Shown piece after piece: positions 18,195 through 38,098 of a stretch of 62,010 nucleotides of DNA. The translations under genes and the position numbers were made by a program. The DNA lies in assembly GCA_964603905.1 (NCBI GenBank), contig CAZRWH010000001.1:3146-65155 (forward strand). The letters are read 5' to 3'. The notes below the pieces were generated by a model. The model did not search any database, had not been told where the DNA came from, and saw only the letters and a list, made by a program, of their open reading frames with translations. Each line of letters starts with the position of its first letter. Position 1 is the stretch's first letter. Source of the DNA: an uncultured Candidatus Peribacteria bacterium (lineage in GTDB: Bacteria > Patescibacteriota > Gracilibacteria > UBA1369 > UBA12470).

Positions 18195-18232
18195 GCATGG
18201 TATGTTTTTGTCTTAAATGAAAAATTAATTCT

Positions 18233-18574
18233 ATGCAAAACCCAAATAGATTTCGAAAAAAAGACCAACCTCTTCTAGCTCTTGCTGCGGCTGTAGCGGC
18301 AGCCACTGTTTTTTTGGTGGATGCTCAGGTAATAGCGAAGGCTACAGGACGCATGGATGTTGTAGTGGCATCCGAATTGGATGTTTATCGTGGTTTGGTT
18401 TTAGGAGTAATTGACGAGATGAATGATGGGGGGAAGAAGGTTGATTATAATTCTGTGCTCGAAGAGGTGATTTTAGATACTTCTAGTTGGACAGAGGCTC
18501 ATTGCTTTGATCGAGCCAATGGAGATAAAGCTTGTCGTGTTAGCAAAGGCTGGGGAAATATCGTTAATCCTTAA
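18233..18574 (+). CDS. hypothetical protein with N-terminal hydrophobic segment
   Basis: 113-aa ORF between pyrB and pyrC. LLALAAAVAAATVFLV looks like a signal or anchor. No family recognised. Confidence 0.45.
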   Translation: MQNPNRFRKKDQPLLALAAAVAAATVFLVDAQVIAKATGRMDVVVASELDVYRGLVLGVIDEMNDGGKKVDYNSVLEEVILDTSSWTEAHCFDRANGDKACRVSKGWGNIVNP

Positions 18575-18807
18575 TATTTGTTTTTATGGCTATCGATATA
18601 CAAAATTTAAAAAGAGAAATCCCTCAAGGTAGCTTGCTGGGTGGGATTTTGGCTGGCTGAAGAGGGCTTATGATCCGAATTTCAGATCTCAATGTGGACT
18701 TATGACTGACGCTGCAGTTGCGGATGAGTTGGAAGCGACCAATCAGCATGCGATGCGGGTTTTAGATCCAGTTAGACTTTTGAGGGGGGAGTGATATTAT
18801 AACTTTG

Positions 18808-20073: not shown

Positions 20074-20103
20074 TACAGTTCCCACGGCCTAAACAAACCT
20101 ATT

Positions 20104-21030: not shown

Positions 21031-21042
21031 GACATATGACTT

Positions 21043-21840: not shown

Positions 21841-21944
21841 TTAGTTGGCAGATTGCAAATGGCAGATAGCAGAAGTTGGTATTTTTTGTAGCAGGTGTTT
21901 TTTGTGGTAATCTGATGTCCTTTAAAAAAATAAAATTTTAAATC

Positions 21945-22229
21945 ATGAGAATAGAAGGAGTAGCTCTTAATAGGGACGATTTGTCAGATTTCTTTTGGAA
22001 TTTGAAGGAGGGCGGAGATATTCAAGTTGAATCTGTCGAAGGATTTCGAAGGGCTTTTCGCAAGAGGATCTTATGGGGAGGCATGGGATTTCAGGTTGAA
22101 TCTGATCTTAATCAAATCTCAATTCAGGTTGGCGAATTAGGGAGGGTAGTTTTGGGTAGATATACCAATGATATTCGTACAAAGGCTCTTCGGGCTATCG
22201 AAGGTTTGCGTTCTGCGGCTCGCCCTTGA
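21945..22229 (+). CDS. hypothetical protein
   Basis: 94-aa ORF with no recognised family. Confidence 0.4.
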   Translation: MRIEGVALNRDDLSDFFWNLKEGGDIQVESVEGFRRAFRKRILWGGMGFQVESDLNQISIQVGELGRVVLGRYTNDIRTKALRAIEGLRSAARP

Positions 22230-22285
22230 CAGTTTTGCCCAAAGATGTATAATGCTTTTCTGTTTTTGAATTTAACCTAAAAAAC

Positions 22286-23188
22286 ATGAAGAACCTAAAT
22301 ACAATGAATACTCTTCGAGCTGCTACAGTTGCTGTTATGGCGATGGCGTCTGGGAATGCGGTTGCTGAGGATGGAGTTTCTGTTACACCGAGATCTATCC
22401 AGGAAGCTGGATGTGTGGTCCCTACTGGTATGAGTCTTCTTGATTTGAGAGATGGTGCTGCAGCTTTAGAGCAGTCTTTTGAACATGCTGTACACGTTTC
22501 TGCACAAGATCGCGATGAGGCTTATCGTCGTGCTGTTCTTGAGTTACAAGAGTCAAAAAAATCTTTAAGTGCAGATACTGGACGATTGATTACATCTCTT
22601 TCTGTTACTGCTGATTCTGCTCGTGAATTGCTTCGAGATATCCCTGCTAATGCCCAAGCAGATGCTTTTGAAGATACTGGTAAATACGGTCTTAGGCTTG
22701 CTGAGATTGAAAAATCTTATGGTGTAAAAAAGCAACAATTCTCTGGTTTGACAGATAGGTATGACTCTTTTGAAGGTATTACTGATATCTCTGACGATGG
22801 TATTAAGCTTTATGATGTTGCTGTAGCTTTGAAAGCATGGGAAAAGTCTACAGGCATTGACTGCCCTGATAAAGTTGTTGATGCGGTGATTGCTGCTGGA
22901 ACTGTTACGATCCCTTCTTATGCTGATCCGAATGCTGTGATGCCTCTGTCTCAAGGTCTTGGTACGCGTGGAAGAGGTTCTGGTTATGGGCATCCTGACT
23001 TTTCGTCTAGGTCGGAACGAAACCCTGATGGGTCTGCATTGACTCATGAACAAAAGAGATTAAATGCTCTTTATGATTTTCTTGGCAAAGTTGAGAGGTT
23101 AGAATCTGATATTGCTAAATCTATTGAAGCTGCTGAGCAACTTCAAAAAGATGTTGATGCTTTTCAGCCACCAGCACAACGACAATAA
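22286..23188 (+). CDS. hypothetical secreted protein
   Basis: 300 aa. Signal-like MKNLNTMNTLRAATVAVMAMASGNAVA. No recognised family. Confidence 0.55.
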   Translation: MKNLNTMNTLRAATVAVMAMASGNAVAEDGVSVTPRSIQEAGCVVPTGMSLLDLRDGAAALEQSFEHAVHVSAQDRDEAYRRAVLELQESKKSLSADTGRLITSLSVTADSARELLRDIPANAQADAFEDTGKYGLRLAEIEKSYGVKKQQFSGLTDRYDSFEGITDISDDGIKLYDVAVALKAWEKSTGIDCPDKVVDAVIAAGTVTIPSYADPNAVMPLSQGLGTRGRGSGYGHPDFSSRSERNPDGSALTHEQKRLNALYDFLGKVERLESDIAKSIEAAEQLQKDVDAFQPPAQRQ

Positions 23189-23283
23189 TTTTTATTGAAA
23201 ATTTCAAAAGGGAGAGCGATTAATTTCGTCTCTCCTTTTTTTTGTGTCATAATGCGCGCGACAAATTTTTAATCTAAATCTCG

Positions 23284-23922
23284 ATGAACGAAGTATCAAA
23301 ACAAGTTGCCGGAGCACTTCTCGATGCAGGTGCTGTAAAAGTTAGTATGGATCCGCCTTTTCAATGGGTTTCAGGTATAAAATCACCTGTTTATTGTGAT
23401 AATCGAATGATGATTTCGCACGTTCAAGGACGTCAATTGATTGTTGATGCTTTTAAGAAAATTGTTGAAGAACAAAACCCTGATTACATCGGAGGAACTG
23501 CAACTGCTGCGATTCCTTGGGCCGCTTTTATTGCGCAAGAACTTGATTTGCCGATGATTTATATCCGTCCAGCGAAGAAGGAGCATGGTGCTGGCAAGCA
23601 AATCGAAGGGGATCTTAAGGCAGGTAGCAAAGTTCTTATTGTTGAAGACCTAATCTCGACTGGTGGAAGTAGCGTGAAAGCTGCAGAAGCTGTTCGTGAA
23701 GAAGGAGGATGTGAAGTGACAGATATTCTTGCAATTGTAACCTGGGAGATTCCGAAAGCGATTGCTAGGTTCGAAGATGCGAATATTAATTTAACGACGC
23801 TTACTGGATTTACAGATTTGATTGGTTTGGCTGCAGAGAGAGGTTACGTGACGGATTCACAGGCTGATATGATTTATAAGTTTAAGGAGGATCCTGCGGG
23901 GTGGTGGGAGTTAGTAGGTTAG
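23284..23922 (+). CDS. pyrE: orotate phosphoribosyltransferase
   Basis: 212 aa with the PRPP-binding loop VLIVEDLISTGGS. Confidence 0.93.
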   Translation: MNEVSKQVAGALLDAGAVKVSMDPPFQWVSGIKSPVYCDNRMMISHVQGRQLIVDAFKKIVEEQNPDYIGGTATAAIPWAAFIAQELDLPMIYIRPAKKEHGAGKQIEGDLKAGSKVLIVEDLISTGGSSVKAAEAVREEGGCEVTDILAIVTWEIPKAIARFEDANINLTTLTGFTDLIGLAAERGYVTDSQADMIYKFKEDPAGWWELVG

Positions 23923-23942
23923 CTGGGGAGTAGGCTAGTAGG

Positions 23943-24320
23943 TTAGCTGTTTTTGCCGTATCGTATTTTCTTTTGCTGGGATATTAGGCTGTTGAGCATT
24001 TTCATTACTTCATCTAATAGTTTGTCTACTTTTATGTAGTCTAGGTGTTGTGTTTTTCGGAGTTCTTTGGAGATGGTTATTTGTGTTTCTAATTCACCTC
24101 CTGATCCATAAGAATAAAGCAAGAAACGTATGAAGTTGCCAGTTGATAAAAGCATTCGACCTTCTGCGATATTTGAAGCAATTGAAACTGAAGCTCTGCG
24201 CATTTGCGATGTTAATCCGTAGACCTCTTCTTTTGGGTAATGTTCTGTAAGTTGATATACAGCTTTGACTAATTGCAAAGATTTTTTCCAAACCAATAAG
24301 TTTTTATAAGTATGCATCAT
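23943..24320 (-). CDS. four-helix-bundle protein (23S rRNA intervening-sequence protein family)
   Basis: 125 aa. YKNLLVWKKS..L...VY.LT..YPKEE.YGLTSQMRRASVSIASNIAEG is the family signature. Confidence 0.85.
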   Translation of the reverse strand: MMHTYKNLLVWKKSLQLVKAVYQLTEHYPKEEVYGLTSQMRRASVSIASNIAEGRMLLSTGNFIRFLLYSYGSGGELETQITISKELRKTQHLDYIKVDKLLDEVMKMLNSLISQQKKIRYGKNS

Positions 24321-24431
24321 ATCGAGAAACTACCACATTGATGTTAAATTTTTGTTAAATCTTATGTATACTCCCGTCGAGACATAATCTACTTCCCAGC
24401 TAAAATACTAATCTACTAATTAATTTAAAAA

Positions 24432-25361
24432 ATGAACTTCGCAGACAAGCTAAATGCAGCAATCAAAAAGACTAAGGCTCCGATTTGTGTTGGTTTAGAT
24501 CCAAGACTTGATCAGATCCCAGCTCAAATTATTACCAAAGCGATAGACGAAAAAGATCGAACACCAGAAGGCGCGGCTCACGCTTTTTTGGAGTTCAATA
24601 AAGGGATTATTGATGCGGTTTGTGATTTGGTGCCGGCTGTGAAACCTCAGATTGCTTTTTATGAGCAGTATGGCTGGGCAGGATTCAAAGCTTACGAGGA
24701 AACTTGTGCATATGCTCGTGAAAAAGGGTTGCTTGTTATTGCTGATGCGAAACGGAACGATATTGGTTCTACTGCGGCAGGTTATTCTGGTGCTTTTCTT
24801 GGAGAGGTTGATCTTTTTGGAGCGAAAGAGAAGGCTCTTGATGCGGACGCTTTGACTGTGAATGCGTACCTTGGATGGGATGGTATTAAACCTTTTGTGG
24901 AAGCTTGTGATAAACATGATAAAGGACTTTTTGTTCTAGTAAAAACTTCTAATCCTTCTTCTGGAGATTTGCAGGATCGTGATTTTTCGGATGGGATGAA
25001 GGCTTATGAATTGATGGCTCATTATGTTGAGTCTTGGGGGTCTGATTTGATTGGCGAGACTGGTTACTCAAGCATAGGTGCAGTTGTAGGGGCAACTTAT
25101 CCAGCACAGGCTAAAGTTCTTCGCAAAATGATGCCTAATTCGATCTTCCTAGTACCTGGTTATGGTGCTCAAGGTGGTGGTGCTGAAGATGTTAAGCCTT
25201 GCTTCAATGACGATGGTCTTGGGGCTATCGTTAACTCGAGCCGAGGTATTATTTTTGCTTATGAAAAGAGTGAAAATTTCAAAGCAGAAAGTTACGATGA
25301 GGCTGCTAGAGTTGCTACTTTGGAAATGATCGCAGACCTTAAATCTGCTGGCCTTGCTTAA
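24432..25361 (+). CDS. pyrF: orotidine-5'-phosphate decarboxylase (long, type 2)
   Basis: 309 aa. VGLDPR...ADAKRNDIGST...LVPGYGAQGG motifs. Confidence 0.92.
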   Translation: MNFADKLNAAIKKTKAPICVGLDPRLDQIPAQIITKAIDEKDRTPEGAAHAFLEFNKGIIDAVCDLVPAVKPQIAFYEQYGWAGFKAYEETCAYAREKGLLVIADAKRNDIGSTAAGYSGAFLGEVDLFGAKEKALDADALTVNAYLGWDGIKPFVEACDKHDKGLFVLVKTSNPSSGDLQDRDFSDGMKAYELMAHYVESWGSDLIGETGYSSIGAVVGATYPAQAKVLRKMMPNSIFLVPGYGAQGGGAEDVKPCFNDDGLGAIVNSSRGIIFAYEKSENFKAESYDEAARVATLEMIADLKSAGLA

Positions 25362-25489
25362 AAAGCTTGCCATATTCCAAAAACGGGCCCCTGCTCGACA
25401 TCGTTGGTTTTTCCTTTGTTAAAGCGGTTATTTGCGCTTTGGAGTGTTGTTTTGGTGTGGGATTAAGTGTTTTACAGGAATGAGGGGGG

Positions 25490-25518
25490 TTAACATGGAG
25501 GCTTTTTTCAGGTATAAT
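25490..25518 (+). promoter_or_regulatory. candidate sigma70-type promoter of the acidic surface-protein operon
   Basis: TTAACA-N17-TATAAT about 27 nt upstream of ATG 25545. Confidence 0.5.
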
Positions 25519-25544
25519 CATTAGATTTAAAAGCTAAGTCGAAC

Positions 25545-27368
25545 ATGTTCAATCTTCTTAACAACCTGGCGGAGAGGCTAAACATCAGGGTTTCTGTTAT
25601 TGTTTTGGTTGTTCTTTTGTTTTCTGTTTCTACTTTGCAGACGGTTGTTACAAATGGCGGATGTGCAGGGGATTGTTCAACTACGACAAGCGTAACTTTG
25701 ACTACAGACTCTACGGCACCTAATCTTCAGTTGGTTAATCCTCCAAGTGGTGCTTTGTGTGCTTCTACTTTTGAAATGGAAATTCTTTGTGAACGTCTCG
25801 CAACTGTTTATGTTAATGGTGCCAACATTGGTACTGTTCCTGGAGATGATGGGCTTATCAATCATACTGTTAGTCTTAATTATGGGATTAATTCTTTTTT
25901 GATTTACGCAATAGACTACTGGGGGAATCAAACTTCTGATTTGAATGTGTCTATTACTCGAAGATCTGATTGTGGTGATGGTGGTCCTGGAGGGGGAGGT
26001 GATGAGGGTCCTTATGGTGGAGGTGTGCCTGATCCTGGAGATGACCCTGACGATGATGACGACGATGATCCAGAGGAAGATCCTGCGGAAGAAGATGATG
26101 ATGACGAGCCTTCTTCAGATCCTGAAGAAGAGGAGGAAGAGTTGCCAGGGGACGAGCCTTCTTTAGATCCTGAAAAAGAAGATGAAGTTGTTGAAGAGGT
26201 ACAAGAAGAAGAGCCTGAAGTCGAGGTAGCTGATGAAGACCTTTATTCTTATTGGATTCCGTATTATCCAGAGGGCGAGCCTTTTGTTTATCATGATGCA
26301 GCTTCAACATGTACTGCGGGTTGTTTGGAGGCTTTGCAAGATTTGAAGCCAAAAGCTTATTTACAAGATTCTGACGATGATGGTATCTCAGATGCTTATG
26401 AGATGTTCTTGAGTTGTGGGGAGGATCTGGATGATATATCGGTTTCTGATAATGAACTTGGTTCTTGTAGTTATATTACCTATACGGACTCGGATGTTTA
26501 TGTGCGCGGACAGGCTTTGGATGAAACAACTAAGGTTGAATTTTATTTAAGTGACGATAATGGTGGATACGAATATCTTTCATCTGTTGTCCCTAATGAA
26601 AATGGCGAATTTTTCTTTAAACACCCTGCGTGGGTTGATGGAGTCTATGAGCTTGTAGCTCGAGAATATGACGAACAAAAGTTGTTGCGTGAATATGGGC
26701 ATTCAATTCGTGTTGATATAGATGAAGATGTTTATTTGGATGTTGATAATCTCCAATACGGAAAAGGGGATAATACAATTCCTATGCCACTTTTAGTTCA
26801 GACAAATGTTTTAGGAGCGGCAACACAACTCGTTTATCAAAACAATGCTAAGACATATATGATTGGAGAGACAGTTCCTATGTCTGAAGTTGTTGTTGTA
26901 TGGGATGAAGAGTCTGCTTTGATTAGCAGTGGCATTTCTGATGCTGATACTGGGCGTTTCAAAGTTGAGACACCTTCTACCTTGCCGATTGGTTTTTATA
27001 ATTCATATGTTTACAGTATTGATTTGAGTAATTGGTTTATGAGTAGCTTGGCGACAGTTCAGTTTGAGATAACAATTGTGGATAAAATAATTGGATTCTT
27101 TGTTGCTACTCAGCTTCTTTGTATTATTCAATGGATTCTTTATATTATCTTGGCTGTGTTGTTGCTTATTGAAAAAAACACAGAGCACAGGAGGCGGAAG
27201 TATACTATTGGTATTTTGACGCTGTTCTTTGTGGCATGGATTTTTTGGCCTGGATTATGGATTTGTAAGTATAGTTTGTGGCCGGTTGTTTTGGTTTTGG
27301 TTTTGTTAATTCTGAAATTTATTTATAAAAAACTTTTTAAGAAAGACCTGGATGATAAAAACAATTAA
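25545..27368 (+). CDS. membrane-anchored surface protein: Ig-like domain, poly-D/E/P tract, C-terminal multi-TM anchor
   Basis: 607 aa. N-terminal hydrophobic segment. GDDPDDDDDDDPEEDPAEEDDDDE tract. Three hydrophobic segments in the last 90 aa. Confidence 0.7.
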   Translation: MFNLLNNLAERLNIRVSVIVLVVLLFSVSTLQTVVTNGGCAGDCSTTTSVTLTTDSTAPNLQLVNPPSGALCASTFEMEILCERLATVYVNGANIGTVPGDDGLINHTVSLNYGINSFLIYAIDYWGNQTSDLNVSITRRSDCGDGGPGGGGDEGPYGGGVPDPGDDPDDDDDDDPEEDPAEEDDDDEPSSDPEEEEEELPGDEPSLDPEKEDEVVEEVQEEEPEVEVADEDLYSYWIPYYPEGEPFVYHDAASTCTAGCLEALQDLKPKAYLQDSDDDGISDAYEMFLSCGEDLDDISVSDNELGSCSYITYTDSDVYVRGQALDETTKVEFYLSDDNGGYEYLSSVVPNENGEFFFKHPAWVDGVYELVAREYDEQKLLREYGHSIRVDIDEDVYLDVDNLQYGKGDNTIPMPLLVQTNVLGAATQLVYQNNAKTYMIGETVPMSEVVVVWDEESALISSGISDADTGRFKVETPSTLPIGFYNSYVYSIDLSNWFMSSLATVQFEITIVDKIIGFFVATQLLCIIQWILYIILAVLLLIEKNTEHRRRKYTIGILTLFFVAWIFWPGLWICKYSLWPVVLVLVLLILKFIYKKLFKKDLDDKNN

Positions 27369-30300
27369 GAAAAACTTGGCGGTCTTGATGGTGCTATCCC
27401 TTGTTGTGATAGGAAGCTGTATTGTGCTTGCGAAAGGTAATGATGGTCTTAATATCGGTTTCGATGATTTGGATGATTTGGCTGAAGTTCAAGTGATTGT
27501 TCATAGTGGTTCTCAAGATCGTGTTTATGTTCGTGATGCTGTGTCTGTGACAAACCCTATTGTTTTTGATGGTTTTGATTCATTGAACAGGTTGCCGTAT
27601 TTGATCGAAGCTAATCTGTACGATTTCGATCATAATATAATTGGTTCTCATGAGAAGGTTGTAATTCCACTGAGCGAGGTCGCTATTGTGGTTGGGATTT
27701 TGATGGTGATTTTGGGGTTTGTTGCTTGTAAAGTTTGTAAATTAAGAATGTACTATGCTTTTATTTCGGGTCTTTTGGTTGTTTTTGCTGGTGTATTCCT
27801 GGTTGTGCCTGGAATTGATATCGAAGGGACAAATTATTCGGCCAATATCTCTGATTTATTGTTTATAGATGTTGTTGATGTTGAAGGTTCTATTAAAGAC
27901 CTAGAATCAGAGGAAGTTGTTGCCGATGTTGAAGTAGAAGCTGTTATTGAGGAAGTTCAGGAGGAAGAAGTTATCGAAGAAGAAGTAGTTGAAGAGGTGG
28001 TAGAGGATGTCGAAGTTTTGGATGTTCCTATAGCAGAAATAATTGAGGAAGAGAAAGAAGAGGTGATTGAAGTTGTGGATCTTGAAGAGGAAGAAGAACT
28101 TGAAGAAGAGGTGGTAGATGAAGATGAAGTTGTTTTAGAGGAAGAAGAGGTCGTGATTGAAGAAATTGAAGACGAAAAGAAAGAAGAGGAAGAAGAGGTG
28201 TTTGAGGCAAAGCTGTATGATGCTGTTGATATTGATGTGGATTCAGAAAGTCAGGCTGTGGTTGTTGCATTTACTGACGAGCAGATTGATGAGCTTTATG
28301 ACTTTGAAAAATGGGTTCCTGTATTAGAGTCGTTGGAGGATATGACGTGTTTATCTGCTTTGGATGATGCTTATGATCGTCGTGTTGCTTCAATTTTTGC
28401 TGGTGTAGAGGAGGAAACGGAGGAAGCCGTGGAGGAAGAAAATGAGGAAGAAGAGATTGAGGTTGAGGAAGTTGAAGACGAGGAACAGGAGATCGAAGAA
28501 GAAGAGGTTGAAGAGGAAGAAGAGATAGATTCTGACGTGAATTTTGAATTATGGATTCAGTGGCTTGAAGATGAAGAGGCTTGGTATACTTGGGATGATG
28601 AAGATGAGAGTTGGTATAAGTGGATTTATAATGAAGAGGTTTGGAATAGATGGAATGTAGAGGAAGAGTCTTGGGATGTTTGGAATTCTGAGCTTTTGGA
28701 ATGGATTGTTATTGAAGAGGAAGACGAACTTGAAGAAGAGGTGGCCGAGGAAGAAGAGGTTGTGATTGAAGAAATTGAAGAGGAGGAAGAAGAGGACACT
28801 CCTCAATGGCATGAATGGACTGGTGGAGGATGGGATTCTTGGCAGGAGTTGATGACAGAGGAAAAAGAGGAATTGAAAGAAGAATTGGATGAAGACGAAC
28901 AAGATGAGGAAGACGAGATCGAGGACAAAAAAACATGGTATAGATGGGGCGATCATGAAAGTTGGTCGTCATGGATTGAGCAAGAGGTTGAAGACGAGGA
29001 AGAGGAGGAGTCAAAACAATGGCATGAATGGCTAGAAGCGAAAAATGATTTAGAAGGAGATGCTGAAGAAGACGAGGAAGAGGAGGAAGAAGAGGCTATT
29101 AGGTCTTGGTATAAATGGGATGGTTCTGAGGATGCATGGTTTAGATGGAACGTTGAAGATGAGAAATGGGAGGAGATTGAAATTGAAGATACAAATAGTA
29201 TTGCCTATAAGTTAAAGAATAAGTTCTCTGCATGGGGGCAGGCTTCATTGTCCCAGTTTGACTTTAAAGGTATTAAGGACAGTGTCTTGCATCTTTGGGA
29301 TGCGTCTCAGGGGTCGGTTAGTCTTTTTGATTTCGATCTTTTGGCTGCTAGAGTTCCTTTGGAGGCAGAATTGTTTAAGAAAAATAAGGACAAAAACAAG
29401 GCAATGAATTATTTGTCGCCATGGGCTTATTCTGGTGATGATGAGGATGAAGATGATAATGATGATGACGACGATCGTGATGACGAGGAAGAAGAGAGTG
29501 AGGAGGATGAGGTTGAAGAAGTTGAAGACGAAGAACAAGAGATCGAAGAAGAGAATGAGGCTGATGAGGAGGCTGTTGTTGAGACGGAAGAATCAGATGA
29601 ACTAAATGAAACTGAGGAAGAGGTTGTTGTTACTGAGGAGAAGGACGACGATAAGCAGGATGAGGATGAAGAAGAAAAAGAAGACGAATTGGTATTGCCG
29701 ATTGTATCGATTTTTGAGCCTGAGAGTTGGGTAGTTGGCAATCTTGAATCGTTTGAGGATCTTGACTCTTCGTTTGGTGTTCTTGATGACATGGATAAAT
29801 GTATTTCTATATTCTCTTATATTTCTGAAGGGGAATACGAGGAGTTTTTGGAGAGTTGGCTTGATTCTAAGTTGTCGGCTGCTAGAGCTATTGCTGAAGA
29901 GGAAACTTCCAAAGCACAAGAAAAGAAGATCTTGGTTAGAAGTGTGGATGATATTGTTGTAGAGAACGTTGTTATTACTCCTAATAACCCTAATTTAGAT
30001 TCGACTTTGGCGCTGGATTACATTGTGACAAACGTTGATAGTCACCCTGGTCTTTCGTTTGACTACACTTGGCAGCGAAAGAATAATTCTGGTCAATACT
30101 ATGAGATGGCATATGTTAAGAGCTCTGAAATTAAGCAGGATTTGATGAAGCCTAAATTCAAAAATATTCCTTATGGTTATGATGTGAAACGATACGAGCT
30201 TGGTTTCGATTTTGAATTTTATGGAGATGTTTATAATTCAATATATATATCCCCTGAAGGCTATGCTAGTTTCCATGACTTGTCTTCTGTTTTGGACTTT

Positions 30301-31251
30301 GAAGAAGGGCAACAATCGGTTATTGCTCCTTGGATGCCTGTTGATAGTTCTAAGATAGATTTTGATAAATCTTACTACCAAGTTAAATTGTCTGACGATG
30401 AGGATGGCAACCAGGCTTTGGTTTATTGGTCTATAGCATTGCTTGATGAGAAAAAAGAGATTGAGGTATATCTTTATTTGCTTGAAGACGAAAACTTGAT
30501 GATTTTTGAATATGACACTCTTCCTGACTCTCTTGATAGCAAGGACATTTACTCAGGTGTTCAGGATTATGGTAAAAAGCTTGCTGTAGGTGATGATGTC
30601 GAGATCTCCTATTTAGGGGTTTTCTCCAAAAAGAAATCTGTTGTTATTACTCCTTATTCTCGATTTGACGATATTGTTGGTGAAAGAGGGCCGACTCTTA
30701 ATCAGTCTCTTCAGGACGGTTACACTTATAGATTAAAAGTTGTTCCTTATCTTAATAATTTCTACGGAGAGGAAGGGTATTCGCGAGAGGTTACTGTTGT
30801 TGATTATGGTGGTGATGTTGATAATGAGTCTTGCAGTGGGTATACCAATGTTTGGTATTTCTTAGGGCCGGCTAGTTTTCATACTTATCCTGATGATGTT
30901 CCTGTTGTTTCCAAGGAGTCAGATCAGATGTTGCATATGGATTTAATTGAATACTTTGGCGAAGAAGAACTAAAAAATATGTCTAGTCTTTATCTTAGGA
31001 TAGATTCATTTGATTCTCGTGACGGTGGTTATTCTTTGGATTCGTCGGCTTTTTATTTGGAAGTTGCTGGTGTTGTCGAGTCTCCTGATGTTTACCATGG
31101 CGTTAAGTATTATGAGATTGATTTAACACCATATTCGGTTTATGGATTGCCTTTGCCGACTATGGAGGTGTTTATGACTTTGCCGGCGGATGCTCCTTCG
31201 GGGGTCTATGACTTCTATGCTTATAGTAATATTTATTATATTGAGGAATGA
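27352..31251 (+). CDS. giant hyper-acidic surface protein with WxxW decapeptide repeats and a non-acidic C-terminal region of about 430 aa
   Basis: 1299 aa. Signal/anchor plus two TM segments. E/V/D repeat tracts. W-x2-W-x6 periodicity. Its start overlaps the upstream gene by 17 nt and its stop overlaps the next ATG (ATGA). Confidence 0.75.
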   Translation: MIKTIKKNLAVLMVLSLVVIGSCIVLAKGNDGLNIGFDDLDDLAEVQVIVHSGSQDRVYVRDAVSVTNPIVFDGFDSLNRLPYLIEANLYDFDHNIIGSHEKVVIPLSEVAIVVGILMVILGFVACKVCKLRMYYAFISGLLVVFAGVFLVVPGIDIEGTNYSANISDLLFIDVVDVEGSIKDLESEEVVADVEVEAVIEEVQEEEVIEEEVVEEVVEDVEVLDVPIAEIIEEEKEEVIEVVDLEEEEELEEEVVDEDEVVLEEEEVVIEEIEDEKKEEEEEVFEAKLYDAVDIDVDSESQAVVVAFTDEQIDELYDFEKWVPVLESLEDMTCLSALDDAYDRRVASIFAGVEEETEEAVEEENEEEEIEVEEVEDEEQEIEEEEVEEEEEIDSDVNFELWIQWLEDEEAWYTWDDEDESWYKWIYNEEVWNRWNVEEESWDVWNSELLEWIVIEEEDELEEEVAEEEEVVIEEIEEEEEEDTPQWHEWTGGGWDSWQELMTEEKEELKEELDEDEQDEEDEIEDKKTWYRWGDHESWSSWIEQEVEDEEEEESKQWHEWLEAKNDLEGDAEEDEEEEEEEAIRSWYKWDGSEDAWFRWNVEDEKWEEIEIEDTNSIAYKLKNKFSAWGQASLSQFDFKGIKDSVLHLWDASQGSVSLFDFDLLAARVPLEAELFKKNKDKNKAMNYLSPWAYSGDDEDEDDNDDDDDRDDEEEESEEDEVEEVEDEEQEIEEENEADEEAVVETEESDELNETEEEVVVTEEKDDDKQDEDEEEKEDELVLPIVSIFEPESWVVGNLESFEDLDSSFGVLDDMDKCISIFSYISEGEYEEFLESWLDSKLSAARAIAEEETSKAQEKKILVRSVDDIVVENVVITPNNPNLDSTLALDYIVTNVDSHPGLSFDYTWQRKNNSGQYYEMAYVKSSEIKQDLMKPKFKNIPYGYDVKRYELGFDFEFYGDVYNSIYISPEGYASFHDLSSVLDFEEGQQSVIAPWMPVDSSKIDFDKSYYQVKLSDDEDGNQALVYWSIALLDEKKEIEVYLYLLEDENLMIFEYDTLPDSLDSKDIYSGVQDYGKKLAVGDDVEISYLGVFSKKKSVVITPYSRFDDIVGERGPTLNQSLQDGYTYRLKVVPYLNNFYGEEGYSREVTVVDYGGDVDNESCSGYTNVWYFLGPASFHTYPDDVPVVSKESDQMLHMDLIEYFGEEELKNMSSLYLRIDSFDSRDGGYSLDSSAFYLEVAGVVESPDVYHGVKYYEIDLTPYSVYGLPLPTMEVFMTLPADAPSGVYDFYAYSNIYYIEE

Positions 31252-31829
31252 TTATAAAAAAATTACAATTTGGTGTGTCTTTGATTGCGGCGAGTATTAT
31301 TCTAATTATTGTGTTGTCTTCTGTGGCTACGGCGGGCACCTGTGTTGGGGCAGGGTATTTGATGATTACTTCTTCTCCTTCTGTTGAGAATTTCGATGAA
31401 AGTTTATCAACTTCTGCTGCTGACGTGATTATTGAGCACGTGTTCACAAGTCCTATTGAGGTTGAGGATTCGCGTGCTGAAACTCTTGGATTTGTATTGA
31501 GTATGCATGCTACAGATTTTCAGGATATTTCTGGAGAGACTAATGACACGATTACGGTTGATAATTTATATGTTATGACGGATTCCGATAATATCCTTGA
31601 ATATGATGACCCTTGTGATGACGGGACGGGTATATCTTTGTCTTGTAGTACTTATACTGCGTTTAGCGATTCTAATCAGGATGGCCTTTCGGATGACTTA
31701 GTCATTTTGGAAGGGGATGTAAGGGCGCGCGTTGGGTATTACACTATTTATCCTAAAATCAAATTGGTTGTGCCTGGTGGGACATTAAGTGGGACTTTTA
31801 GTACGACTTTGACTTATACTCTTATGTAA
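31248..31829 (+). CDS. WxL-like secreted surface protein (C-terminal ...TLTYTLM)
   Basis: 193 aa. N-terminal hydrophobic segment. VEDSRAETLGFVL and LVVPGGTLSGTFSTTLTYTL resemble the WxL-domain blocks, with Y in place of W. Confidence 0.55.
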   Translation: MIIKKLQFGVSLIAASIILIIVLSSVATAGTCVGAGYLMITSSPSVENFDESLSTSAADVIIEHVFTSPIEVEDSRAETLGFVLSMHATDFQDISGETNDTITVDNLYVMTDSDNILEYDDPCDDGTGISLSCSTYTAFSDSNQDGLSDDLVILEGDVRARVGYYTIYPKIKLVVPGGTLSGTFSTTLTYTLM

Positions 31830-31887: not shown

Positions 31888-32544
31888 TTAGTCTTTTTTG
31901 TTAGTGAAAGCGATAATCATTGCTGCAATAAGAATTATTGCGAGTGCACCTACGTACTTTGTGTAGCTTCTTTCGCTGTTTAGTTCCATTTCTTCTTCTA
32001 CTTGGTCCATTACTCCATATCGCTCTTCTTTGAATTCTTTGAACTCGTCTTCTGTTACAACTTGTATTAGTATTGTTTTCCCCATCTTTACTACTGATGT
32101 TACGCCTGATCCTGCTGTCGATCCTGTGTCTTCATTGTAATATCTTGCGAATACTCCTCCGTAATAATCTCCCAAAGGTGTATCTGCTGGGATGTCGAAA
32201 TCTAGTCTTACTACTGCCGTTTCGTTCCCACCGACGCTTACGATTTCTTCTTCAAGTTGTCCCCATAAGTTTACTTCTTTTGCAGGCTCGTCTTCATGGA
32301 CCATTGTAGGGACATTGGATATCGCGTTTAATTCTCCGGTTGAGTGTTGCAGGTTTAGATAGAAAGATTTTACTTCTTCGTCGTTGTTGCTTAATAAGAA
32401 CTCTGTATACATTGATTCCCCTGGTGCGATTTTTAGGGTCATTGGTCCCACGTCGTCATATATTGAGCTGACGCTGAAAGTACCTGCTAGTGCGGTTCCA
32501 GCTGTTAATACTGATAGCAGTAATGCTGTGAGTAATTTTTTCAT
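31888..32544 (-). CDS. DUF916-like cell-surface protein with C-terminal TM anchor
   Basis: 218 aa. Signal peptide. LWGQ...VRLDFDIPADTPLGDYYGGVF signature. C-terminal TM YVGALAIILIAAMIIAF. Confidence 0.5.
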   Translation of the reverse strand: MKKLLTALLLSVLTAGTALAGTFSVSSIYDDVGPMTLKIAPGESMYTEFLLSNNDEEVKSFYLNLQHSTGELNAISNVPTMVHEDEPAKEVNLWGQLEEEIVSVGGNETAVVRLDFDIPADTPLGDYYGGVFARYYNEDTGSTAGSGVTSVVKMGKTILIQVVTEDEFKEFKEERYGVMDQVEEEMELNSERSYTKYVGALAIILIAAMIIAFTNKKD

Positions 32545-32557
32545 TTTTTTGTTTTGG

Positions 32558-33211
32558 TTATTTTTTATTTGGGTCGTAAAGCTGCAATAGTAATATTACG
32601 ATTAAGGCCGATACAGTAGTGGTTACTATCATTAGCATATATTGTGCTGTTTTGTCGCGGTCCCAGCCTCCTGTGTATTTTGCTAGTTCATTTGGTGTTT
32701 CGGTGACAGTAATTATTACTTGGGACACCATTCTAACTTGGGATACGACTTGGCTTTTCCCTTCTTCTACTGTTGGGACGTTTGTAGTAGAGATACCCCC
32801 GTAATATTTTCCGACAGGTGTGTTTTCTGGGACTTCAATTGTGAAATTTAAAATTACTTCCTCTTTCTTTTCAAGTTCTATACTGTTTTGGTCAAAGCTG
32901 ATCCATGTGCCAACTTCTTCTGGCTTTTGTTCATTTGCATCAGGGGTGAATTTACTGTTGTCTAGTGTTGCGTCGATACCTTGTATTTCTATGTATTTTT
33001 CTGAGTCAGGTCCATTTTCGATTAATATAGAGTCTTGAATTGTTGTGCCGGGTGCAATCTCATGTATGAAGGATCTTGGTGATTCCATGTTTGGTATTGC
33101 TGGTGCTACTGCAAATCCGGTACTTATGTCAAACTTTGTTATTTCGTAATATATTGCACCTATTAGGACAAGATCTAACAGTATTAAAAGTGCTATTATT
33201 TTTTTGAGCAT
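32558..33211 (-). CDS. DUF916-like cell-surface protein with C-terminal TM anchor (paralogue)
   Basis: 217 aa. TWISF...ILNFTIEVPENTPVGKYYGGIS. C-terminal TM. Confidence 0.5.
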   Translation of the reverse strand: MLKKIIALLILLDLVLIGAIYYEITKFDISTGFAVAPAIPNMESPRSFIHEIAPGTTIQDSILIENGPDSEKYIEIQGIDATLDNSKFTPDANEQKPEEVGTWISFDQNSIELEKKEEVILNFTIEVPENTPVGKYYGGISTTNVPTVEEGKSQVVSQVRMVSQVIITVTETPNELAKYTGGWDRDKTAQYMLMIVTTTVSALIVILLLQLYDPNKK

Positions 33212-33213
33212 AA

Positions 33214-34329
33214 TTATTTAACTTTTACGTTTGGAATTATGATTGTAGTCCCTTTCATTACGAAGTATGGGGGTTTGATTTTGTTCATTTTGGATAATAG
33301 TTTCCAGTCAACTCCTTTTGATAGAGCGATATCCATTAGGTTCTCATTTTTCTTTGCTGTGTATTTTTTCCCTTCTGCAAGTAGTTTCTTCATTTTTGCC
33401 TCCTTGATGTATAAGAATGCAAATGCAATTAGGAATGCTAAGATGCTAACAATGGTTTCAACTATTGGTAGTATGATGAATGTTACGCTTTTGGACTCTG
33501 TCTTAATGGTTGATGGATCAATATCTCCTATTATTTTAGCTCTGTAGTATTCGAAGTCTATTTTTGTAGAAAGAAGACCTGCAACTGGCACTTTGTCAAG
33601 TTTTATTGACTGTATGTTCGTATCTCCAGGTGTTATTTGGCTAAGTGAATTCTCTTGCTCTCCGATTGTGAATACGAACAGGTTTTTTGTTGTTAGCTTT
33701 GCATCAAGTCCAACGTTTACATTCCCATTATTCTCTGTGTATATGTCTATAACGTGTGATCCTTCTTCGTTTTTTGAGTGTTTAATGCTTTGGATTGCAA
33801 AATCCCATACTTCTTCTCCTGTTACGGTTACGTAAAGTCTCTTCCCAATGTTAACGACACTTACTGTCCCCGAAGCAGCTATGCCGGTGCTTTCTATTAC
33901 GGCAGGTTGTATTAGTATTCCTCCGACATAATCACCAGGGCTTGCGTTTTCTGGTACTGTTATGCTGAAGCAACTTTCTATATTTGTTTCAGCTGGTACA
34001 TCTAGTATTGTTTCTTCAGTATGGAACCATGCGCCTATGTGGTTTTTTTCGTCATCTGCCTTCTCCAGCGCAAAGTTGCCACTATCTGTTATTACGCTGT
34101 CTACGCCGTCGACTTTTACTGATTGTAACTCCTCTTTAAGATTTGACAGTACAAAACAGTCCTCGATTGTTTCTCCCGGATCAAGTTCGAATGCAAATTG
34201 TGTTCCGCTTGCTCTTTCAATGTTTTTTGATGCTCCGATCCCCATTTTTTCTTGTCCGTGCGCAAGAGGTATTAGTAGGATTGAGAGCATTGTTGCAAGT
34301 GCAATGCTTGCCGTTATTTTTTTTGACAT
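33214..34329 (-). CDS. DUF916-like surface protein with TM segment and C-terminal LysM domain
   Basis: 371 aa. AWFH...CFSITVPENASPGDYVGGIL. TM FIILPIVETIVSILAFLIAFAFLYI. LysM-like YTAKKNENLMDIALSKGVDWKLLSKMNKIKPPYFVMKGTTIIIP. Confidence 0.55.
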   Translation of the reverse strand: MSKKITASIALATMLSILLIPLAHGQEKMGIGASKNIERASGTQFAFELDPGETIEDCFVLSNLKEELQSVKVDGVDSVITDSGNFALEKADDEKNHIGAWFHTEETILDVPAETNIESCFSITVPENASPGDYVGGILIQPAVIESTGIAASGTVSVVNIGKRLYVTVTGEEVWDFAIQSIKHSKNEEGSHVIDIYTENNGNVNVGLDAKLTTKNLFVFTIGEQENSLSQITPGDTNIQSIKLDKVPVAGLLSTKIDFEYYRAKIIGDIDPSTIKTESKSVTFIILPIVETIVSILAFLIAFAFLYIKEAKMKKLLAEGKKYTAKKNENLMDIALSKGVDWKLLSKMNKIKPPYFVMKGTTIIIPNVKVK

Positions 34330-34848: not shown

Positions 34849-35436
34849 CTATGCAGTAACTAGAGTAAATGTAAGAGTGTTTTGGTAAGTACCAGCTTGA
34901 GTACCACCTGGGATAGTGATTTCTAGATCAGGAGTAAGACCACAATCTACCGCACGGATAGTTGAGTCTGCAGTTACGATATCGTAAGTAGATAGGTCGT
35001 CGATTTGAACGTTTTCTGTCAATACCATTCCTGTAGAAGAACAAGAAGCTGCAGAAAGGTCTTGCCATGAAGTACCTAGACTATCGATATCGAAGTCAAC
35101 GTTAGCATCAGTAGCACCAAGAACGATTTGTTGACCTGTGCTCCAATCTGAAAATCCTTGTGGAAGAGAAACATTAACTGTGAAAGTAGATCCATCAGAT
35201 GTAAGATCCTCGATTTGGAAACTGTCAGTTGTAGCTGTAGCTGTAATTACTTGGTCAGAAGCACTTGTGCTTTGGTTAGCAAAGTTCATAGATGCAGGAA
35301 CTGTTAGAACTGGAGAAACTGCACCGTTGATTTGTACTTGAGAAGTAGTATCGTCAGCAGAAGCAAGACCGAAAAGAACTACGTTTGCTACAAGAGCAGC
35401 AGCAACTACGATTGCTGTAAGTTTTTTGTTTTTCAT
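34849..35436 (-). CDS. WxL-like secreted surface protein (C-terminal ...TLTFTLVTA)
   Basis: 195 aa. Signal peptide. LTVPASMNF, IEDLTSDG and LEITIPGGTQAGTYQNTLTFTL resemble the WxL-domain blocks. Confidence 0.6.
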   Translation of the reverse strand: MKNKKLTAIVVAAALVANVVLFGLASADDTTSQVQINGAVSPVLTVPASMNFANQSTSASDQVITATATTDSFQIEDLTSDGSTFTVNVSLPQGFSDWSTGQQIVLGATDANVDFDIDSLGTSWQDLSAASCSSTGMVLTENVQIDDLSTYDIVTADSTIRAVDCGLTPDLEITIPGGTQAGTYQNTLTFTLVTA

Positions 35437-35609: not shown

Positions 35610-35647
35610 GGTGCTTGATAGAATTTATCTTAAAAAAAGAAATAAAC

Positions 35648-38098
35648 ATGAAAAATCGTTCAAAAATCTTATGGGGTCTTGGTGCTGCATGGCTTTTTAC
35701 TGTTGTGGGTGGGTATTTTTATACTCATTTCGATGTTATAGCTACCCCTCTTCATCCATTATTTGAACTGGTTGATATAACTAGGTATTTCCTTGTTATT
35801 TTGGTTCTGGGAGTTTTGGGCTTTGTTGTTTTTAAGAAGCTTTTACCTCAAAAATTGAAGTTAAGTGCAGTTTTTTTGATTTGTTTGTATTTGTTTTCAT
35901 TGTTTTTCTTTGGGTATAGCAGGTTCTTTTTTAATGATTTTGGAGTTTATCATGGTGATTATCTTGTTCAAACTGAGGAAGGCGTGGCCTTTTATCGAGA
36001 TGTGTCGGAGGTCGATCCGAGTTTAGTTTTATTATTTGATGGAAAGATTAGTTCGGCTCCTATTGCTCAATATGGAGAGGTTTGGGATATGGTTGGTGAT
36101 AAATTTGAGTCTGTTTCACTGATTCCTGCTGCATGGTATATGGTTGTGAATTTGTTTGTACCTCTTGGTCTGTTGATTGGTCTTTTGTTGGCTGTTTATG
36201 TTTATGGTAGTTTTGTGGTTAGGAGATTGGATGTGGGAGGATTAAAGGGGTTTTTGTATTCGATGGGGTTAGGATTTATGATTATGGGGCTTGTTTTGTT
36301 AGGAGGGCTTTTTACGGGATATTATAACCCTTATGTTTTTTGGGCTGTGTTGGCCGGAATGCCACTAGTTTTGATTATTATTGATGCGGAGCATTATTGG
36401 GATATTTTGAAAGGATTTTTCAAATGGAGAAGCGCTCCTTTATCTGATATTTCGGTTTTGTCCTTTGTTTCTATTGCTTCTATTGTTGCGTTTTTTAATT
36501 GGAATTTAGTTCAGTCTTTTGCTCTTTTTCCTTCTGCTTTTGATGACTTTATTCTTTATATGTATTTGCCTCGTGAGCTTTATTTCCGAGGGGAGTTTCT
36601 ATGGGGGTATATGCCTTATGCGTTTGCGCTGGTTCAGTCTTTGGGTATTTTTATGGCTAAGAGTGCAACCTCTATTGCTCAATCTGTTACTTCCGTATGT
36701 TCGTTGTTTGCGGCTTTGGCTGCGTATGTTTTTGCTAGGAAGTACTTGTCCAAAGGTATGTCATGGTTTGTTGCTGCGTTTTTGATGTCGTTGCCTGTGG
36801 TTTTTTATCATGGTCATGTTGATTTAAAGGTAGAGATGCCTCTGATGTTTTTGTCATTTATTTCTTTATTGGCTCTGGATGATTGGTTTGATACTGGTAA
36901 GAAGAAATGGCTTTTCTTGTCATGTTTGATTGCGGGGTATATGGTCTCGGTTAAATTGACGGCTCTTCTTTTTGCGTTAGTTCTGGTGTTGGTCATTTTG
37001 ACTGTATTTTTCCGTAATCTTTATCTGGAAAGAACGAAGTATCTTAAGCAAGGTGTTATTGGGTTGATTTTATGTGCTGTGTTTATGGCAATTCCGGTTT
37101 TGCCTTGGATTGGATTGCATTCCTATTCTTATGGGCAGATGGTGACTAGTGTTGCTGAGCTTTCTCATAGTCATAATGTTGATGCAGTTTCGGTTTCTTA
37201 CGATGAGTTATTAGTTGATGCTTCACAATGTTCTTCGCCTGGTGGAGATTATATGGATTATGGCAAATATATGTCTGATGTATCTGGTGTTTGGAGTTTT
37301 GTTCAGATGCCATGGAATTATGTGATGCAAATTTCTTTGCTTTCACCTGCTACTGACCTGGGTCCTGTTTTCTTGGCTATTTTGCCTATCGGCCTGGTTG
37401 CTCTTCTTATGTTCCGTAGAAAAGAAGGTTTTGGATGGAAGGGGCTTTTATATCTTGGTGCCGGTGTTGCTTATTGGGTGATTTGGGCGTTTTTGTATAA
37501 ACAGGTTCTTTGGTATGGAATTACGGGTTTTGTTTTCTTGTTTATTCTTCTGATTGCATCTCTTTCTCTAGTTAAGAAGGATAGTATTAAAAAAGGTATT
37601 GCGATTGGTGTTTTGTCTGTGCTGGTTTTGACGTCAATTTTCTGGAGAGGTAATTGGTATGTTTCAAGAATGAACGTACAAGCTTTGTATTTGGGAGGGG
37701 AGCTAACCTTTAGTGAGTATGTTAACAATCGTTTTCATGATCATTTTTCTTCGATTGGTGTTTTGAATTCTGACATGGATTCGAAGATTTATGCTACGAA
37801 TGTTCAAACTGTTCTATTCTTTGTTAACAATGGTAATGAAAGGGTTTATGCAGATCGGTATATTGATTTCTTTAGCTGTTTGGATCAATTCCACAATGGA
37901 GATGGGGATGCAATTTTGTCTGACATGCAGGCTACAGGATTTGATTATGTTCTTTTCTATCAGCCTGTTTATGATCCTACTCTTGGAGAAGACTTGTACA
38001 ATGCAAATATGCGACTGCTTCAATTCTCTGAGGAGTATTTGTACTATGCAGGGGGTGATGGAAATTTCTTTACTTATGCTATTCCTCCAGCGATATAA
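35648..38098 (+). CDS. large polytopic membrane protein, possibly a GT-C-fold glycosyltransferase or polymerase-like enzyme
   Basis: About 816 aa from ATG 35648 (the ORF track starts at TTG 35615). More than 12 hydrophobic segments plus a soluble C-terminal domain. No catalytic motif verified. Confidence 0.6.
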   Translation: MKNRSKILWGLGAAWLFTVVGGYFYTHFDVIATPLHPLFELVDITRYFLVILVLGVLGFVVFKKLLPQKLKLSAVFLICLYLFSLFFFGYSRFFFNDFGVYHGDYLVQTEEGVAFYRDVSEVDPSLVLLFDGKISSAPIAQYGEVWDMVGDKFESVSLIPAAWYMVVNLFVPLGLLIGLLLAVYVYGSFVVRRLDVGGLKGFLYSMGLGFMIMGLVLLGGLFTGYYNPYVFWAVLAGMPLVLIIIDAEHYWDILKGFFKWRSAPLSDISVLSFVSIASIVAFFNWNLVQSFALFPSAFDDFILYMYLPRELYFRGEFLWGYMPYAFALVQSLGIFMAKSATSIAQSVTSVCSLFAALAAYVFARKYLSKGMSWFVAAFLMSLPVVFYHGHVDLKVEMPLMFLSFISLLALDDWFDTGKKKWLFLSCLIAGYMVSVKLTALLFALVLVLVILTVFFRNLYLERTKYLKQGVIGLILCAVFMAIPVLPWIGLHSYSYGQMVTSVAELSHSHNVDAVSVSYDELLVDASQCSSPGGDYMDYGKYMSDVSGVWSFVQMPWNYVMQISLLSPATDLGPVFLAILPIGLVALLMFRRKEGFGWKGLLYLGAGVAYWVIWAFLYKQVLWYGITGFVFLFILLIASLSLVKKDSIKKGIAIGVLSVLVLTSIFWRGNWYVSRMNVQALYLGGELTFSEYVNNRFHDHFSSIGVLNSDMDSKIYATNVQTVLFFVNNGNERVYADRYIDFFSCLDQFHNGDGDAILSDMQATGFDYVLFYQPVYDPTLGEDLYNANMRLLQFSEEYLYYAGGDGNFFTYAIPPAI

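Follow-up and report, generated by a model that had tools for sequence, protein, structure and literature searches.

An array of twelve WxxW motifs in the polyanionic segment of a predicted membrane-anchored orphan protein

Introduction

Is a tryptophan register inside a poly-glutamate protein a real and distinct element, and if so, what could it serve? The question is raised by a 62,010-nucleotide stretch of DNA from an uncultured Candidatus Peribacteria bacterium (contig CAZRWH010000001.1; "the window" denotes this whole stretch hereafter), in which one gene encodes a hyper-acidic protein of 1299 residues. An earlier note, made by reading the letters of the window, had described in this protein a strict 10-residue tryptophan (Trp) periodicity, W-x2-W-x6, belonging to no described repeat family, and had suggested that such an aromatic ladder could bind glycans, choline-like groups, cations or minerals. 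Our analysis of sequences and structure models identifies the element as a lineage-specific array of twelve WxxW motifs in the polyanionic segment of a predicted membrane-anchored orphan protein. Below we describe the array, ask whether chance, assembly or recent repeat expansion could have produced it, and weigh the structures and functions that it may have.

Results

A recurrent WxxW pair with a decapeptide register in two blocks

The gene and the five blocks of Trp pairs that it encodes are located as follows (window coordinates, strand, description):

27352..31251, + strand: gene for the hyper-acidic orphan protein, 1299 residues, 29.6% Asp+Glu and 6.5% Lys+Arg
28552..28704, + strand: block A, residues 401-451, five strict decapeptides and a closing Trp (WIQWLEDEEA WYTWDDEDES WYKWIYNEEV WNRWNVEEES WDVWNSELLE W)
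28807..28842, + strand: block B, residues 486-497, WHEW-TGGG-WDSW, pair spacing 8
28936..28974, + strand: block C, residues 529-541, WYRW-GDHES-WSSW, pair spacing 9
29020..29031, + strand: block D, residues 557-560, a single WHEW
29107..29169, + strand: block E, residues 586-606, two strict decapeptides and a closing Trp (WYKWDGSEDA WFRWNVEDEK W)

Within this open reading frame, base 28552 opens the codon of Trp401 and base 29190 closes codon 613; the segment singled out in the earlier note is residues 401-613, and every Trp peptide quoted from it is present in the protein. Exact residue counting did not dissolve the periodicity and confined it to two places. In block A the Trp residues alternate strictly in steps of three and seven over ten gaps (401, 404, 411, 414, 421, 424, 431, 434, 441, 444, 451), amounting to five units plus one Trp, and the same register returns in residues 586-606 with two units plus one Trp. 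Between these blocks the claim of a strict decapeptide fails: WxxW is kept, while the distance from pair to pair is 8 and 9, and one pair stands isolated. The Trp residues beyond block A are found at 486/489, 494/497, 529/532, 538/541, 557/560, 586/589, 596/599 and 606, so that the gaps from 401 to 606 read 3, 7, 3, 7, 3, 7, 3, 7, 3, 7, 35, 3, 5, 3, 32, 3, 6, 3, 16, 3, 26, 3, 7, 3, 7. The constant element of the whole array is the WxxW pair; the decapeptide spacing holds in part of it only. The seven strict units follow the consensus W-[Y/F/N]-[K/R]-W-[N/D]-x-E-[E/D]-E-x, and the connectors between pairs comprise four to six residues rich in Gly, Asp, Asn, Ser and Glu (e.g. TGGG, GDHES, DGSEDA, NVEDEK).

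Chance origin of this spacing is excluded by the statistics of gaps, alternation and motif counts. Of 25 Trp gaps, 19 measure three or seven residues (binomial p=1.6e-11), and the longest strict alternation spans 10 gaps compared with a maximum of 6 among 100,000 random placements. The twelve WxxW motifs lie within 206 residues, whereas the composition of the whole protein leads to an expectation of 0.97 (Poisson p=6e-10), and none of 100,000 composition-preserving shuffles of the Trp segment (34% Glu, 12% Trp, 10% Asp) contained twelve. Across the rest of the window, all six reading frames together hold 40 WxxW, every one of them single and scattered.

Nor is the array an assembly artefact, because an independently assembled Logan contig (L193, from SRR8146440) matches window positions 25404-29696 with 0 mismatches. 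The SRR8146440 assembly breaks one base past 29696, within the acidic repeats, and resumes with another contig (L122) at 29698. Two antisense open reading frames over the array (28549-28956 and 28709-29014) were dismissed as Phe/Leu/Ser-rich mirror images of the GAA-rich sense strand, and no RNA or tRNA features were found in the window.

Tryptophans kept while the residues between them diverged

Tandem Repeats Finder detects no 30-bp DNA repeat over block A. Among its five strict units, Trp1 and Trp4 are invariant and the other eight positions share 19% amino acid identity, their codons 49% nucleotide identity. Judging from these values, the strict units are old or strongly diverged, and since the Trp residues were kept while the other positions diverged, the pattern argues for constraint on Trp spacing rather than for recent slippage. 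Trp spacing thus looks conserved rather than recently copied.

The remainder of the gene has a more repetitive history. Its middle is a patchwork of many degenerate GAA/GAG-rich DNA repeats, and a module consisting of an acidic spacer and QWHEW is duplicated at 80% nucleotide identity over 50 nucleotides (28769-28818 and 28982-29031). As noted earlier, the acidic string EVEDEEQEIEEE occurs twice, near residues 373 and 722. Two non-acidic islands (28318-28461, about residues 323-370, and 29728-29871, about residues 793-840) are 38% identical (E=0.003), and the 15-residue acidic string EVEEVEDEEQEIEEE is found upstream of each; besides the Trp array, repeats of a higher order are thus built into the stalk. 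The GC skew is strongly positive over 18000-31000 (up to 0.56 at 28-30 kb), where the AT skew turns positive as well, because the acidic genes on the + strand are coded by purine-rich GAA/GAG; replication strand bias is not the cause.

This history allows for an explanation without function, in which a 30-nucleotide unit and the module of acidic spacer plus WxxW were amplified through slippage or recombination, in a gene rich in GAA and prone to repeats, and then tolerated as a neutral by-product of low-complexity expansion in a disordered linker. The GAA/GAG patchwork and the duplicated QWHEW module would be expected under such a process, the protein is an orphan from one genome, and comparable Trp-periodic low-complexity tracts have arisen independently in unrelated proteins (see below). 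It accounts poorly for the selective persistence of Trp, a rare residue with a single codon, at every position of the register while its eight neighbours drifted to the identities given above, and for the retention of WxxW even where the connector changed in length. Among the acidic tracts, moreover, Trp is confined to residues 401-606, which hold 26 of the 36 Trp of the protein, with none in the tracts of residues 155-300 and 700-782. Overall, we consider neutral expansion somewhat unlikely, while taking it seriously.

No relatives and no described repeat family

Sequence searches returned no family for the protein and no relative of it. Pfam-A gives no family for the whole protein at E<=0.01, no match for residues 401-613 at E<=10, and noise only for the N-terminal part and the C-terminal 452 residues at the latter threshold. 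NCBIfam has no match to the protein, and sequence searches of the PDB yield nothing significant, including for the C-terminal region. Word-indexed searches of 5.8 billion proteins found no homologue of the C-terminal 442 residues and none of the whole protein, for which 8000 candidates sharing poly-Glu words saturated the search. Finally, when residues 396-455 were run with HMMER against all 1.84 billion cluster representatives, a single match came back, an unrelated basic KQAWHRYKTH repeat (P0001). Together with a Foldseek comparison (see below), these searches bear out the earlier claim that no described repeat family accounts for the array. In the public collection the protein comes from one NCBI contig only (78,763 bp). 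Its cluster at "90% identity" (P0011, P0012, P0013) groups it with two unrelated sequences, P0012 and P0013, and is represented by an unrelated 56-residue JGI protein, and SecY is likewise clustered with an unrelated 50-residue fragment; mis-clustering of this kind can conceal a protein from searches based on representatives.

Specific families with short aromatic or Ca2+-binding repeats were considered individually. Choline- and cell-wall-binding repeats (Pfam CW_binding_1, PF01473), a match to which had been named beforehand as grounds for abandoning the claim, give no profile match to residues 401-613 at E<=10. The Mucin-2 WxxW region (PF13330, CysD-type) does not match the Trp segment at that threshold either. 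The Trp-Arg ladder of thrombospondin type 1 repeats (TSR) and WSXWS motifs finds no counterpart, with no Pfam TSP_1 match and no Cys in residues 372-613. The WxL domain (PF13731), which spans about 200 C-terminal residues and has two Trp-x-Leu motifs, is detected neither in the protein nor in its C-terminal 452 residues. No Pfam or NCBIfam match was obtained to RTX, EF-hand or TSP type 3 repeats, and the units contain no GGxGxDxUx nonapeptide or DxDxDG-type loop. Literature searches for bacterial WxxW or Trp-rich acidic repeats yielded eukaryotic work on TSR and C-mannosylation and on the fungal adhesin BAD-1 only. From its sequence, then, the array belongs to no described family and is one of the short aromatic tandem repeats found in surface proteins.

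By analogy, its closest functional counterpart is BAD-1 (WI-1) of Blastomyces dermatitidis, a tandem-repeat adhesin, Trp-rich and with an acidic surface, that binds Ca2+ with high capacity and low affinity and also binds heparin (PMC3708853). In BAD-1, some 20 residues of each repeat are conserved, two invariant Cys close a loop of 17 residues, and Trp comes as a WxxWxxW triplet (PMC3708853). In both surface proteins, most of the chain consists of short tandem repeats that are exceptionally rich in Trp, with Trp-x-x-Trp spacing and acidic residues; the unit in the window, however, has 10 residues, a WxxW pair only, no Cys and much longer poly-Glu spacers, and no sequence homology to the fungal protein was detected. 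TSR, WSXWS and C-mannosylation sequons resemble the array in placing WxxW in an extracytoplasmic protein, and one window unit reads WSSW, yet those motifs sit in Cys-knotted or fibronectin-type domains interleaved with Arg, while the array is bacterial, lacks Cys and has little Arg. CW_binding_1 repeats are likewise short, aromatic-rich units of wall proteins that form beta hairpins and hold wall ligands with stacked aromatics, the mechanism proposed here for the array, but they comprise 20 residues with conserved Gly and Tyr/Trp positions and are not acidic. Designed trpzip peptides are very short hairpins with cross-strand Trp-Trp pairs, a fold that structure prediction hints at for block E and part of block A. 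Trpzip uses W-x-W (i, i+2) with the indoles on one face, whereas the i, i+3 spacing of the array would put the two Trp residues of a strand on opposite faces.

The same register in unrelated extracytoplasmic proteins

A scan of the genome collection for seven TGG codons in a 9/30-nucleotide register gave at least 120 matches; those listed are mostly out-of-frame tandem repeats, with no relative of the 1299-residue protein among them. Scans of metagenomes and viruses with an added Glu/Asp constraint revealed no relative either. Several unrelated proteins were nevertheless found to carry the register in low-complexity segments outside the cytoplasm. A sensor histidine kinase encoded in a metagenome-assembled genome of Ruminococcus flavefaciens (L027:900-3014, + strand, SFMO01000081.1) has five exact copies of GQQDWNNWNN, followed by PWN repeats; the five copies lie in an extracellular loop between its two membrane helices, and the HisKA and HATPase_c domains were confirmed. 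This repeat is an uncharged counterpart (Asn/Gln/Gly) in a cellulolytic bacterium. DEDWSNWPGM units occur in a membrane-anchored HtrA-like protease with Trypsin_2 and PDZ domains, a secreted protein has a WGNWENDEEG decapeptide in the W-x2-W-x6 register, and WEEWEVSDEV/WKEWEITDEV units are present in a small, apparently helical viral protein (L126/L185).

The kinase, the protease and the WGNWENDEEG protein share with the array the W-x2-W-x6 register, polar or acidic fillers and a site just outside an anchor or signal peptide. They differ in being other host proteins with other fillers and no detectable homology to it. Because the same register occurs in unrelated extracytoplasmic proteins, the motif type appears to be rare but convergent.

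Two further groups of matches were of a different kind. Predicted lipoproteins of Flavobacteriia (L025, L032, L101) contain long arrays of WGWNN / WGWNxW pentapeptides followed by tails rich in Ser, Arg and Asn; the one WGWNN lipoprotein scanned had no Pfam match. The frequent "WEEWEE" and "WEEWEEWEER" matches (L170, L171, L180 and many IMG/VR and metagenome loci) were rejected as the antisense strand of viral genes. These genes encode Thr/Ser/Ala-rich repeat domains, a long PFFPPFFPFF tail and a Cys-rich terminus, and the Pro-Phe repeat tail is common to many viral contigs.

Predicted topology and charge of the 1299-residue protein

The remaining parts of the protein are arranged as follows:

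27376..27432, + strand: N-terminal hydrophobic segment, residues 9-27, preceded by MIKTIKKN; predicted signal peptide or signal anchor (Kyte-Doolittle 19-residue mean 2.89)
27679..27816, + strand: two hydrophobic helices, residues 110-128 and 137-155, hydropathy peaks 2.76 and 2.53; predicted membrane hairpin
27817..29901, + strand: polyanionic "stalk", residues 156-850, 42% Asp+Glu, net charge about -251, three short non-acidic islands
29902..31248, + strand: C-terminal non-repetitive region, residues 851-1299, rich in Tyr, Asp, Ser and Val

The second and third hydrophobic segments are joined by a short loop, KVCKLRMYY, that carries Lys and Arg. Because of the three hydrophobic segments and this loop, hydropathy and the positive-inside rule predict that everything after residue 155 lies outside the cell. 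The acidic segment is probably disordered and extracellular.

Residues 372-613 have a net charge of about -101, with Lys+Arg at about 5%, and the predicted secreted proteins of the window are all very acidic (Lys+Arg 2-6.5%), their predicted pI standing at 4.05, the floor of the calculation. Such charges raise the prospect that the region is mainly a high-capacity, low-affinity polyanion for Ca2+/Mg2+ or minerals, with the Trp pairs serving as structural punctuation or as cation-pi partners. The acidity of the surface proteins as a group would suggest a cation-rich habitat, and in BAD-1 Trp-rich repeats with an acidic surface do bind Ca2+ (PMC3708853). Cation binding would explain the Glu/Asp tracts of the segment and of the stalk, but not Trp residues at fixed spacing in one part of the stalk only, and Pfam detects no EF-hand, RTX or TSP type 3 motif. 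As an account of the array we therefore regard it as unlikely.

Helical phase and structure prediction

Given the i/i+3 spacing, the strict blocks might alternatively be alpha-helical, as an amphipathic helix or a coiled coil whose Trp stripe mediates self-association or binding to the membrane interface. Both this spacing and the Glu-rich sequence favour helix, the adjoining Glu-rich spacers are modelled as helices by AlphaFold2 (AF2), and the viral protein with WEEWEVSDEV/WKEWEITDEV units appears to be helical. The Trp residues, however, fall into phase at a turn of 108 degrees per residue (period 3.33), where their moment reaches 0.95; at the alpha-helical 100 degrees it drops to 0.17, such that a stripe would wind round the helix once per ~45 residues. 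Known coiled-coil periodicities are 7/2, 11/3 and 15/4, and 10/3 falls outside them. The Trp phase thus departs from that of a canonical coiled coil (hydrophobic period 3.5-3.67, about 100 degrees per residue), and the connectors TGGG, GDHES and DGSEDA are helix-breaking and vary in length.

The AF2 prediction, made from the single sequence of residues 389-621, points the same way, placing strands on those WxxW units that are modelled with any confidence. Strands were assigned to residues 410-415 and 420-425 and, in block E, to residues 586-589, 596-600 and 605-609, which form three short antiparallel strands in the sole region with a predicted local distance difference test (pLDDT) score of 73-80. 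Taken as a whole, the model of the Trp segment gives no more than a hint of short beta strands, and this at some of the WxxW units. Foldseek comparison of this low-confidence model with the PDB returned only matches of E>2, to propeller-blade meanders, and a model of the C-terminal 452 residues made without alignment was unusable (pLDDT 33). Phase and connectors weakly argue against one continuous amphipathic helix and for strand-turn-strand units or an array of unfolded motifs: because the connector has 4, 5 or 6 residues while WxxW is kept, strand-turn-strand fits better than a phase-dependent helix. A helix, in our assessment, is improbable.

A cluster of putative cell-wall proteins around the array

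The genes next to that of the 1299-residue protein are the following:

25545..27368, + strand: upstream gene, 607 residues; its end overlaps the start of the 1299-residue gene by 17 bases
31248..31829, + strand: downstream gene, 193 residues; its start overlaps the stop codon of the 1299-residue gene by 4 bases; WxL-like small surface protein ending in ..TLTYTLM
31888..34329, - strand: three WxLIP_PGBD-like paralogues of 218, 217 and 371 residues, convergent with the preceding genes

Because of the stop/start overlaps and of a promoter-like site upstream of the 607-residue gene (25490-25518, 11/12 matches, the best found and located just before it), the genes for 607, 1299 and 193 residues are read as a three-gene operon. 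The 607-residue protein starts with an anchor and ends in membrane helices; between them lie an Ig/cadherin-like segment (Pfam Cadherin-like, sub-threshold at E=0.0011) and an acidic tract. The tract comprises 100 residues of Asp, Glu and Pro, and the C-terminal anchor is Trp-rich with multiple helices; this protein is also an orphan and is weakly similar to the Big_6 region of the SLH protein encoded at 14591-15865.

The 193-residue protein matches Pfam WxL below the cut-off (E=0.014) and, among 5.8 billion proteins, only itself. Over its C-terminal 41 residues it is 37% identical (E=4e-6) to a 195-residue protein encoded at 34849-35436 (- strand). Both are small secreted proteins with the common C-terminal end IPGGTxxGT[FY]xxTLT[YF]TL, in which Tyr or Phe stands where canonical WxL domains have Trp; the 193-residue protein has no Trp at all. 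Possibly this shared end represents the WxL wall-binding domain in a variant without Trp.

Of the three convergent paralogues, which find one another by BLASTP at E=1e-8 to 1e-12, the 217-residue protein reaches the WxLIP_PGBD (DUF916) family with 29.8 bits (cut-off 27.3), the 371-residue protein scores 22.4 bits and also carries LysM, and the 218-residue protein matches weakly. C-terminal membrane helices are present in the 218- and 217-residue proteins. No DUF3324 host-binding domain was detected in the WxL-like/WxLIP-like cluster of the window, and an SLH-domain protein is encoded 11 kb upstream of the 1299-residue gene.

By sequence, this gene thus appears to sit within a WxL-like/WxLIP-like cell-wall protein cluster. 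The neighbourhood of small WxL-like and PGBD-like proteins with C-terminal anchors resembles the WxL/WxLIP (DUF916/DUF3324) clusters of Firmicutes, where wall attachment depends on Trp; the difference is that the Trp array is not a WxL domain and that canonical clusters have no hyper-acidic 1299-residue member. For WxL clusters, peptidoglycan binding and partner recognition by beta-hairpin insertion have been proposed (PMC10599100).

Farther downstream, 4.4 kb from the gene with the twelve WxxW motifs, an 827-residue membrane protein (35615-38098, + strand) matches PMT_2, a family of GT-C glycosyltransferases, weakly (E=2.6e-6) and has no PDB relative. Its proximity, probably coincidental, suggests one more reading, in which the WxxW motifs are Trp glycosylation sequons and a lipid-carrier-dependent GT-C enzyme, working at the outer face of the membrane, glycosylates the leading Trp of every pair. 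Those parts of the literature that deal with the eukaryotic C-mannosylation sequon W-x-x-W/C give WxxW as the sequon of DPY19 C-mannosyltransferases (PMC10154233, PMC8433626). The window motif is exactly this sequon, and twelve copies occur in a segment predicted to be extracytoplasmic and unfolded. Set against this are the weakness of the PMT_2 match, the lack of any Dpy19 match, the position of the gene outside the operon with convergent genes in between, and the commonness of PMT_2 genes in bacteria. We know of no Trp C-glycosylation in bacteria, and consider this reading very improbable indeed.

The host lineage

The window is a segment of bacterial chromosome that encodes EF-Tu, the S10-spc-alpha ribosomal operon with SecY and RpoA, an A/V-type ATPase and a complete pyrimidine pathway. 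Ribosomal protein L2, RpoA and the ATPase subunits of the host genome are singletons at 90% identity, hence the lineage is very sparsely sampled. At 50105-51347 (- strand), rpsE (S5) is followed after a 40-bp gap by rplO (L15), with no room for L30, an arrangement typical of, though not exclusive to, Candidate Phyla Radiation (CPR) bacteria. Taken together, the missing L30 and the singleton L2 and RpoA point to a lineage that is sparsely sampled and possibly CPR-like, and which nevertheless encodes the full pyrimidine pathway and the A/V-type ATPase.

Discussion

What, then, could the array do? Tentatively, and with less than even confidence, we favour a model of "stickers on a spacer", in which an acidic stalk makes multivalent aromatic contacts through its WxxW motifs with wall glycans or with proteins encoded by neighbouring genes. 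The poly-Glu/Asp tracts would serve as a spacer, hydrated and loaded with cations, on which the C-terminal domain is carried off the membrane and through the wall, and the WxxW blocks would be the multivalent "stickers". Each WxxW-turn-WxxW unit would most likely be a short Trp-paired beta hairpin or meander, whose exposed indole rings could stack on the glycan strands of the wall. Alternatively, the units might dock by strand addition onto the WxL-like or PGBD-like proteins encoded nearby; either type of contact would keep the stalk in place and give it order within the envelope. An envelope role is suggested by the genes of the window for WxLIP_PGBD, LysM and WxL-like domains and for an SLH protein, and the hairpin reading by the variable connector length, the AF2 strands on WxxW units and the hairpin insertion proposed for WxL clusters. 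The aromatic ladder for glycans, choline-like groups, cations or minerals that the earlier note had in mind would count as a candidate role.

Several observations weigh against the sticker model. In a beta strand, residues i and i+3 face opposite sides, so that a single-layer sheet would have to carry its Trp ladder on both faces, an unusual arrangement. AF2 models the Trp segment poorly overall (mean pLDDT 49.6, predicted template modelling score 0.23), and the model contains only 1 of the 5 hairpins possible in block A. The topology of the protein is a prediction from hydropathy, and most matches by which the neighbours are called WxL-like or PGBD-like stay under the Pfam cut-offs. Lastly, no orthologue was found that would show conservation of the array across species.

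The model of stickers on a spacer can be taken one step further. WxxW-turn-WxxW might be an undescribed natural folding unit, a minimal Trp-paired beta hairpin or single-layer meander with Trp ladders on both faces, and, strung along the polyanionic stalk, a new class of multivalent repeats that bind the wall, glycans or partner proteins, a structural extrapolation that we hold to be unlikely. If the Trp pairs are functional, they would constitute a very small, easily synthesised aromatic module for binding or folding. With one protein from one metagenome-derived genome, the practical value is limited to a clean candidate peptide, e.g. WYKWDGSEDAWFRWNVEDEKW. The recurrence of W-x2-W-x6 outside this protein, in extracytoplasmic proteins unrelated to it, hints at convergence on a common solution. 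Should the Trp pairs be functional, the protein would also illustrate how poorly sampled bacteria build envelope-spanning proteins by a grammar of "charged spacer plus aromatic sticker".

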